DNA of 64,000 nt. Source: Escherichia coli (GTDB lineage Bacteria > Pseudomonadota > Gammaproteobacteria > Enterobacterales > Enterobacteriaceae). This document shows, piece after piece, positions 7,124 to 7,757 of the stretch. The notes under the pieces are model-generated. The model did no database searches. It was not told where the DNA came from and saw nothing but the letters and a program-made list of their open reading frames with translations. The stretch is from NCBI RefSeq assembly GCF_030384885.1, contig NZ_CP128613.1, one strand, 5' to 3'. A program made the position numbers and the translations under genes. Within the stretch, counting starts at the first letter, position 1. Each line of letters opens with the position of its first letter.

Positions 7124-7717
7124 TCACTCCTTGAGAAGAGTTTTTATCGCTTCCCCCGCCAGGGCAGCTGTTGCACAGAGTTGTTCGATGGAGTGCCCCT
7201 CCCGTGCCTTCGCAGAAAGCCCTGACATCACGGTACTCATAAAATCAGTCACACATTGTGTGCTTTGTGGATGCCGCCTGGCGATATAGTCATAAATGGT
7301 TGTTTCTGCGGCGTGATAATATTGAACGGCAATATCACGCGCTTGTGGATCATGACTATGAATACCTTCAAGAACCATACAGCCAGCGCAGCCGCCGTTT
7401 TGGCTATATCTGCGCGCCGCTTCTTTTAATACCTCAACCAGGCACTCGCCTACGGGACGATCATCACGAAGAATATCGGCAAGCGGAATAGCTTCCGTAC
7501 CGACATATTCATTGAGTACACGGCTAAATAACCCAGCCTTACTGCCAAAAGCCGCGTAGAGGCTCGGGGGGTTAATACCAAGATAATCAGTGATTTCAGC
7601 AACACTGACAGCATCGAAACTTTTTTGGTGAAAAAGCACTTTTGCCGCAGAGACTGCCTGCTCAGGAGCGAAACGTCTGGGACGACCTGGAACGCGAGAT
7701 TGTTTTTTAGTGACCAT
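7124..7717 (-). CDS. bdcR: TetR-family transcriptional regulator BdcR (YjgJ)
   Basis: 197-aa ORF with N-terminal TetR HTH; divergent from bdcA. Confidence 0.85.
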   Translation of the reverse strand: MVTKKQSRVPGRPRRFAPEQAVSAAKVLFHQKSFDAVSVAEITDYLGINPPSLYAAFGSKAGLFSRVLNEYVGTEAIPLADILRDDRPVGECLVEVLKEAARRYSQNGGCAGCMVLEGIHSHDPQARDIAVQYYHAAETTIYDYIARRHPQSTQCVTDFMSTVMSGLSAKAREGHSIEQLCATAALAGEAIKTLLKE

Positions 7718-7757
7718 TACAAAACTTGTTGACAGAAAGTTAAAACAGTTTTGTAAT
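7717..7757. promoter_or_regulatory. bdcA promoter with candidate BdcR operator
   Basis: Perfect 10-bp inverted repeat TTACAAAACT (7717-7726) / AGTTTTGTAA (7747-7756) bracketing -35 TTGACA (7729-7734) and -10 TGTAAT (7752-7757), 17-bp spacer. Confidence 0.6.

Follow-up and report, generated by a model that had tools for sequence, protein, structure and literature searches.

The stretch of DNA analyzed here (the window) comprises 64,000 nucleotides of Escherichia coli sequence, in which the genes bdcR (yjgJ) and bdcA (yjgI) diverge from an intergenic region of 70 nt. The two genes and the features associated with this region are as follows, in the order of their coordinates:

7124-7717, minus strand: bdcR (yjgJ), TetR-family regulator of 197 aa.
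7706-7721, unstranded: O_R, proposed second BdcR operator, TTTAGTGACCATTACA; its distal half is degenerate, with TTTA for TGTA; extended footprint ~7702-7725.
7715-7726, unstranded: left arm of the inverted repeat, CATTACAAAACT; holds the inner half-site H2 of O_R (TACA, 7718-7721), an A-rich flank and the bdcR start codon.
7729-7734, plus strand: bdcA -35 hexamer TTGACA; TTGA is invariant in 81 loci, and mutation lowers bdcA transcription in vitro.
7747-7758, unstranded: right arm of the inverted repeat, AGTTTTGTAATG; holds the inner half-site H3 of O_A (TGTA, 7752-7755) and a T-rich flank, with both -10 hexamers inside.
7750-7755, minus strand: bdcR -10 hexamer TACAAA; overlaps the bdcA -10 by 4 bp; Reg-Seq mutations here reduce expression; start site 7741.
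7752-7757, plus strand: bdcA -10 hexamer TGTAAT (Shimada 2014; PMC12825309); start site A7765.
7752-7767, unstranded: O_A, proposed main BdcR operator, TGTAATGCATGTTACA; a 5+5 palindrome with a 6-bp center; extended footprint ~7748-7771.
7754-7764, minus strand: NsrR-like half-site AACATGCATTA, in the central spacer of O_A; differs from AANATGCATTT at 1 position.
7773-7778, minus strand: bdcR -35 hexamer TTGATT; overlaps the bdcA Shine-Dalgarno AAGGAG (7777-7782) by 2 bp; strongest negative Reg-Seq footprint.
7788-8501, plus strand: bdcA (yjgI), NADPH-dependent short-chain dehydrogenase/reductase of 237 aa.

The identity of this pair, which an earlier note on the same DNA had given as bdcA and the TetR-family gene bdcR, is upheld by family matches and by the RefSeq annotation. 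BdcR carries an N-terminal TetR helix-turn-helix domain (PF00440 on its homologues, and TetR-family NCBIfam matches over residues 4-73) and is placed by RefSeq in the TetR/AcrR family; several papers describe it as the repressor of the divergent bdcA. The accompanying description of BdcA as a c-di-GMP regulator is outdated, as BdcA is an NADPH-binding short-chain dehydrogenase without detectable c-di-GMP binding: in a published study c-di-GMP binding went undetected by both ITC and thermal shift, and NADPH was bound. The RefSeq record of MG1655 (NC_000913.3, 4473340-4474053) still names BdcA a "c-di-GMP-binding biofilm dispersal mediator protein".

The bdcA promoter, noted earlier as a TTGACA at 7729-7734 that is separated by a 17-bp spacer from a TGTAAT at 7752-7757, was found unchanged on re-reading the sequence and proves to have been described before. 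Shimada 2014 printed the same TTGACA-17-TGTAAT for bdcA, together with TTGATT-17-TACAAA for bdcR, from peaks of RNA polymerase genomic SELEX. Warman 2026 (PMC12825309) includes bdcA/bdcR among five bidirectional promoters, with both RNAs being produced in vitro, a mutation in the bdcA -35 resulting in less bdcA transcription in vitro, and start sites from cappable-seq marked in Table S2. The hexamers of the bdcA promoter, at their 17-bp spacing, match the sigma-70 consensus in 11 of 12 positions, with a G at position 2 of the -10; a consensus promoter scan that demands an A at this position left the promoter unlisted because of this G. The divergent starts at 7765 and 7741 are served by a shared -10 region, in which the hexamers at 7752-7757 on the plus strand and 7755-7750 on the minus strand overlap by 4 bp. 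With starts 23 bp apart, bdcA/bdcR is among the published bidirectional promoters in which both directions share a -10 region (Warman et al. 2021, 2026); unlike the present analysis, those studies concerned RNA polymerase competition alone, and a repressor site at bdcA/bdcR is undescribed there. While the promoter itself is already published, the operator defined below is new, and is put forward as a candidate derived from sequence comparison. As a separate observation, a MazF study lists the yjgJ mRNA as being cut at an ACA located 12 nt ahead of the AUG; an ACA is present at 7727-7729 on the minus strand, between O_R and the bdcA -35, and cleavage there would leave a 12-nt leader.

The same region contains a perfect inverted repeat, for which arms of 10 bp had been noted previously, TTACAAAACT at 7717-7726 and AGTTTTGTAA at 7747-7756. 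Both arms were confirmed by re-reading the sequence, and a repeat search lengthened each on its outer side, giving 12 perfect bp and a spacer of 20 nt, so that the left arm includes the start codon of bdcR (CAT, 7715-7717). In Markov-simulated 64-kb windows 0.2 perfect 12-nt inverted repeats with a spacer of up to 40 nt are expected per window, and shuffling of the 70-nt intergenic region produced a repeat of at least 10 nt in 0.25% of the shuffles; together, the simulation and the shuffling rule out a chance origin of the repeat. The symmetry of the bidirectional -10 region was likewise rejected as its cause, given that the axis of the repeat is at about 7736.5 and that of the -10 region at about 7753.5, with the left arm lying outside the promoter core. 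Two more perfect 12-nt inverted repeats occur in the window, at 10870-10903 and 11327-11357, with spacers of 8-10 and 7 nt, respectively; both are downstream of a pyrB-like ORF (9446..10381) and are terminator-like.

The innermost base of the left arm (7726) is polymorphic, with either T or C, and a C at this position shortens the repeat to 11 bp; this is the commonest variant seen, being carried by K-12 and by three of the four variant E. coli genomes sampled. Strain HCP8S3_I1 shows an additional change, C7766A, which converts a half-site of O_A to TTAAA, a variant that is found in other species too. The arms are contiguously complementary over 12 bp in the window and over 11 bp in L001, an E. 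coli-like locus; for most of the remaining 79 species in the comparative set described below the figure is 4-5 bp. The extra length of the repeat is a peculiarity of E. coli, itself polymorphic.

Each arm of the repeat belongs to a 16-bp palindrome of its own, of the form TGTA-N8-TACA, and supplies one half of it; the partner halves, at 7706-7709 and 7764-7767, are situated outside the interval in which the repeat had been noted. The long-range repeat is present because these palindromes, O_R and O_A, are copies of the same element, with the right half of O_R repeating the left half of O_A on the opposite strand. We consider it likely (with a probability of about 0.78) that one palindromic operator, most probably that of BdcR, occurs here in duplicate and that the repeat arises as a by-product. 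The proposed operator would have a TGTA-N8-TACA core, which A/T-rich flanks would extend to ~24 bp (TTTwTGTA-N8-TACAwAAA). O_A is the sole exact TGTA-N8-TACA in the intergenic DNA of the 64-kb window and, numbered from the published start sites, spans -13 to +3 relative to bdcA and -11 to -26 relative to bdcR. O_R covers codons 1-4 of bdcR; in the bdcR transcript it occupies +21 to +36, and relative to the bdcA start it lies at -59 to -44. With one of its halves degenerate, it is probably a weaker auxiliary site in E. coli. A further exact TGTA-N8-TACA at 35490-35505 (TGTAGCCTCGAATACA) was rejected as a second BdcR target, as it is internal to a 1259-aa ORF and a single additional match is no more than chance would predict.

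To place these palindromes in an evolutionary context, one genome per species was scanned for related loci, yielding 80 loci and, together with E. coli, 81 sequences. In all 80, which come from alpha-, beta- and gammaproteobacteria, a BdcR homologue (52-63% identity) is divergent from a BdcA homologue (75-84% identity), with the two genes separated by a spacer of 68-75 bp. Of the 81 intergenic regions, 70 contain an exact TGTA-N8-TACA and 36 of these contain two, and the matches fall into two position clusters that correspond to O_R and O_A; in 421,576 nt of flanking DNA there is 1 match. The alignment and the position matrices give TTTTTTGTAGTnnTCATTACAAAA as the consensus of O_R and TTTATGTAGCGnnCnnTACATTAA as that of O_A, and the consensus of the alignment as a whole is TTTTTTGTAGTnnTCATTACAAAAnnCCTTGACn(17-21)TTTATGTAGCGnnCnCTACATTAAnnCTCAAGGAG. 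The columns that are invariant across the 81 sequences are T7704, T7708, T7718, A7719, the TTGA at 7729-7732, T7754, A7755, T7764 and A7765. Under relaxed scoring the core of O_R retains 8 of 8 bases in 60 of the 81 loci and 7 of 8 in another 20, i.e. at least 7 of 8 in 80, and the core of O_A retains at least 7 of 8 in 70 of the 81. The half-sites are 12 bp apart from center to center, a spacing that is fixed in the 81 loci, and there are no alignment gaps inside either O_R or O_A. By comparison, the distance from the -35 to O_A ranges from 23 to 27 bp across the family, and the centers of O_R and O_A are 46-50 bp apart; cooperativity between the two sites is unsupported, since this spacing corresponds to non-integral helical turns.

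The distal half of O_R falls in codons 3-4 of bdcR, where we observed a pronounced skew in synonymous codons: the threonine codon is ACA in 72 of 73 cases, and at the preceding position it is ACT in 49 of 49. In the remainder of these bdcR and bdcA genes, which have a mean GC content of 62%, ACA and ACT account for 7.7% and 7.1% of the threonine codons. This skew implies selection on the DNA rather than on the protein, and conservation of an N-terminal Thr-Thr in the protein was excluded by the same synonymous-codon test as the cause of the TGTAGT block. The ATGCAT at the center of O_A is not conserved in the other species of the alignment. As the operator halves overlap both -10 hexamers, part of the conservation, and likewise part of the Reg-Seq signal considered below, is due to RNA polymerase.

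A second line of evidence comes from Reg-Seq mutagenesis of the bdcR promoter, in which a single repressor site was reported at -27..-4. A Reg-Seq position p corresponds nominally to window position 7745 - p (MG1655 coordinates); we used 7744 - p after a 1-bp register correction, which we infer from the register of the published matrix and from the -35 footprint. With this mapping the repressor site falls at ~7748-7771 and so coincides with O_A and its flanks; the footprint reveals a repressor at work on these bases but does not by itself tell which protein it is. The strongest derepressing positions, A7765 and T7764, are family-invariant bases, and other derepressing positions are in the outer flanks, at 7749-7751 and 7766-7771; mutations in the central ATGCAT (7757-7762) are neutral or lower expression, with no derepression. 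The signal within O_R consists of two weak repressor-like positions, 7720 and 7723. The published Reg-Seq matrix, C-R-n-T-n-T-G-T-A-K-C-S-C-T, favors TGTA(G/T)C(G/C), with the consensus of the BdcR family being TGTAGCG, over the TGTAACA of E. coli. Its best matches in the region, other than the site from which it was derived, are in the left arm (10.3 bits, minus strand) and the right arm (10.1 bits, plus strand). When compared with half-site matrices built without E. coli, it gives correlations of 0.58-0.78 in one register only.

The site detected by Reg-Seq has been labeled, both in that dataset and in RegulonDB, as belonging to NsrR, the NO-sensing repressor of the Rrf2 family, and it might be argued that NsrR, instead of or beside BdcR, is the repressor that acts on O_A and the right arm; we regard this as unlikely. 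The label was applied to the -27..-4 site from a known binding location. This assignment was made by location alone, without knockout or mass spectrometry at this promoter, and the location reportedly goes back to the ChIP-chip work of Partridge in 2009. At the level of sequence, the 11-bp AACATGCATTA at 7764-7754 deviates by a single mismatch from an NsrR half-site, a resemblance that would favor NsrR. The NsrR consensus is an 11-1-11 inverted repeat, AAGATGCYTTT-N-AAARGCATCTT. In a hand comparison with this consensus the element at O_A is a lone half, the would-be partner matching in 6 of 11 positions, and half-sites with at most one mismatch are no more frequent in the window than expected by chance. 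The ytfE site in this same window illustrates the difference: a near-perfect NsrR site, AAGATGCATTTAAAATACATCTT at 50496-50518, lies 27 bp upstream of an ORF (50545..51207), the product of which we take to be YtfE-like, a classical NsrR target. Both halves match there, whereas bdcA/bdcR has a half-site only, in the form of an ATGCAT-centered 11-mer with one mismatch.

The mutational data likewise point away from NsrR, in that mutations in the ATGCAT core, which as mentioned above is unconserved in other species, do not derepress, and derepression maps instead to the TACA half and the A/T flanks. The Reg-Seq matrix itself fits the consensus of the BdcR family rather than that of NsrR: its best correlation is 0.41 with the NsrR consensus as against 0.76 with the family motif, and the scores that it assigns are -18 to -29 bits for the NsrR consensus and +10 to +13 bits for the BdcR-family consensus. 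NsrR may bind O_A in addition, but the footprint is not explained by it. The assignment of the "NsrR" Reg-Seq site to BdcR, which we consider probable, is new; in the searchable literature we found neither direct data on BdcR binding to DNA nor a description of a BdcR operator with two sites and named critical bases, and a ChIP-seq compendium of 139 TFs (PMC12059191) that includes YjgJ was unable to model a motif for it.

The earlier note had instead taken the arms as the operator units, with one TetR dimer on each and the pair flanking the -35 and -10. A part of this stands: the arms form a perfect, non-chance repeat, each holds an apparent BdcR half-site, and they are the two best regional matches to the Reg-Seq matrix. 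The arms themselves are not the unit of the operator, as each contains one TGTA/TACA half, and the partners of these halves outside the repeat, at their fixed distance of 12 bp, are equally or better conserved. The 12-bp complementarity between the arms is confined to E. coli, the distance from arm to arm varies by 5 bp across the family, and the strongest derepressing mutations, at 7764-7765, are outside the interval noted earlier. Taken on its own, the arm-based model is accordingly quite improbable, and the picture of a promoter sandwiched between two bound arms gives way to one in which occlusion is assigned mainly to the site over the -10 and the start (7752-7767). Finally, a role of the repeat in secondary structure, either as an mRNA hairpin over the bdcR start codon or as a DNA cruciform, can be practically dismissed: the 12-bp stem would contain the AUG of bdcR, but the bdcR mRNA (start 7741) holds the left arm only, the bdcA mRNA (start 7765) holds neither, and complementarity over this distance is not preserved among the other species. 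Translational control of bdcR by an RNA hairpin was also excluded as a candidate on the grounds that the published starts leave one or no arm per transcript.

Two copies of one palindromic operator remain the preferred reading, and from the co-inheritance of the sites with bdcR we infer that BdcR is the probable bound protein. Comparison with homologues suggests how it might recognize them. The closest characterized BdcR homologue with a solved structure is CifR of Pseudomonas aeruginosa (PDB 6NSN; E 8e-18), which has a near-identical recognition helix (I-R/N-PPSLYAAFGSK), the GRPR arm and the sensing cysteine, and, as proposed for BdcR, has two operator sites between divergent genes for a regulator and an enzyme. 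In the CifR study one dimer was found per 23-27 bp site, and the DNA between the divergent genes has two such sites; Pro44 and Pro45 enter adjacent major grooves 37.9 Å apart, Arg6 enters the A/T-rich outer minor grooves, and Cys107 is required for epoxide sensing. R12, P50/P51 and C113 of BdcR align with Arg6, Pro44/45 and Cys107 of CifR and are invariant in the BdcR family, where two sites with a conserved footprint of ~24 bp and with T-rich and A-rich flanks are also present. The shared contact residues suggest that BdcR would bind as one dimer per site, by analogy with CifR; its Pro-Pro recognition helices would occupy neighboring major grooves, and its N-terminal GRPR arm would reach into the outer minor grooves, which are A/T-rich. 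The two systems differ in that the CifR operators, which were compared by description, are weak inverted repeats, whereas the sites of the BdcR family are clear TGTA-N8-TACA palindromes, and in that the target of CifR is an epoxide hydrolase operon, whereas the partner of BdcR is a short-chain dehydrogenase.

With a BdcR dimer on O_A, RNA polymerase would be blocked in either orientation, so that bdcA would be repressed and bdcR would control its own expression; given that O_A covers the bidirectional promoter, autoregulation of bdcR by the same site is to be expected. A ligand would then presumably release BdcR. This arrangement resembles TetR/tetO and the QacR-type switches, in which a repressor gene is divergent from its target, palindromic operators lie on the promoters and autoregulation is predicted; as in such TetR switches, the inverted repeat fits adjacent major grooves (~10-12 bp) and O_A overlaps the promoter of the divergent target. 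It departs from them in that the bdc operators are 46-50 bp apart, with only one over the -10 regions, and the geometry that we propose at bdcA/bdcR also differs from that of QacR, in which two dimers occupy one long repeat. The mechanism is that of a textbook TetR-type switch, and what is gained is precision, not principle.

As for the ligand, the alignment of Cys113 of BdcR (codon at 7379-7381 in the window) with Cys107 of CifR, and the invariance of G112-C113 in 16 diverse homologues, form the background to a more speculative proposal. They hint that BdcR senses an electrophile. It is conceivable, though we hold it doubtful, that the "NsrR" site is a BdcR operator and that BdcR is a CifR-like sensor which uses Cys113 to detect an electrophile or epoxide-type compound that BdcA removes. 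If this were true, the 70-bp promoter/operator cassette and the two genes would constitute a portable detoxification module across Proteobacteria, and the labels "biofilm dispersal" and "c-di-GMP" would reflect a downstream side effect; the c-di-GMP story of BdcA has already been withdrawn. The link to the DNA recognition and cysteine sensing of CifR also offers a route to the ligand of BdcR and the function of BdcA. Apart from this proposal, BdcR gains a precise candidate operator with two sites and named critical bases, and a regulatory site in a widely used E. coli dataset may carry the name of the wrong protein, NsrR in place of BdcR. As the cassette is kept across three proteobacterial classes, it could find use as a regulated bidirectional promoter that is both compact and portable.

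Within E. coli the bdcR-bdcA pair is present in 4815 of 5426 complete genomes, with the 91 bp at 7700-7790 being identical across 2825 genomes, and is absent from ~11% of the complete genomes and from most B2 strains. The nearest relatives of BdcR beyond E. coli, at ~52-64% identity, are distributed across alpha-, beta- and gammaproteobacteria, with most of them being from Alphaproteobacteria. The phylogenetic isolation and the patchy presence of the E. coli pair suggest horizontal acquisition and loss. The locus L001 (SFGN01000138.1, "MAG: Lachnospiraceae bacterium") encodes a bdcR-bdcA pair with 97% protein identity to that of E. coli and has the same intergenic region; it is probably E. coli DNA mis-binned into a metagenome-assembled genome. 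In the vicinity of the pair, the window also contains a 581-aa ORF (4659-6404, minus strand), YjgL/IcaR-like, with a run of degenerate NNSQ(E/D)L repeats, the Shigella orthologue of which is described in one paper as a type III secretion substrate.
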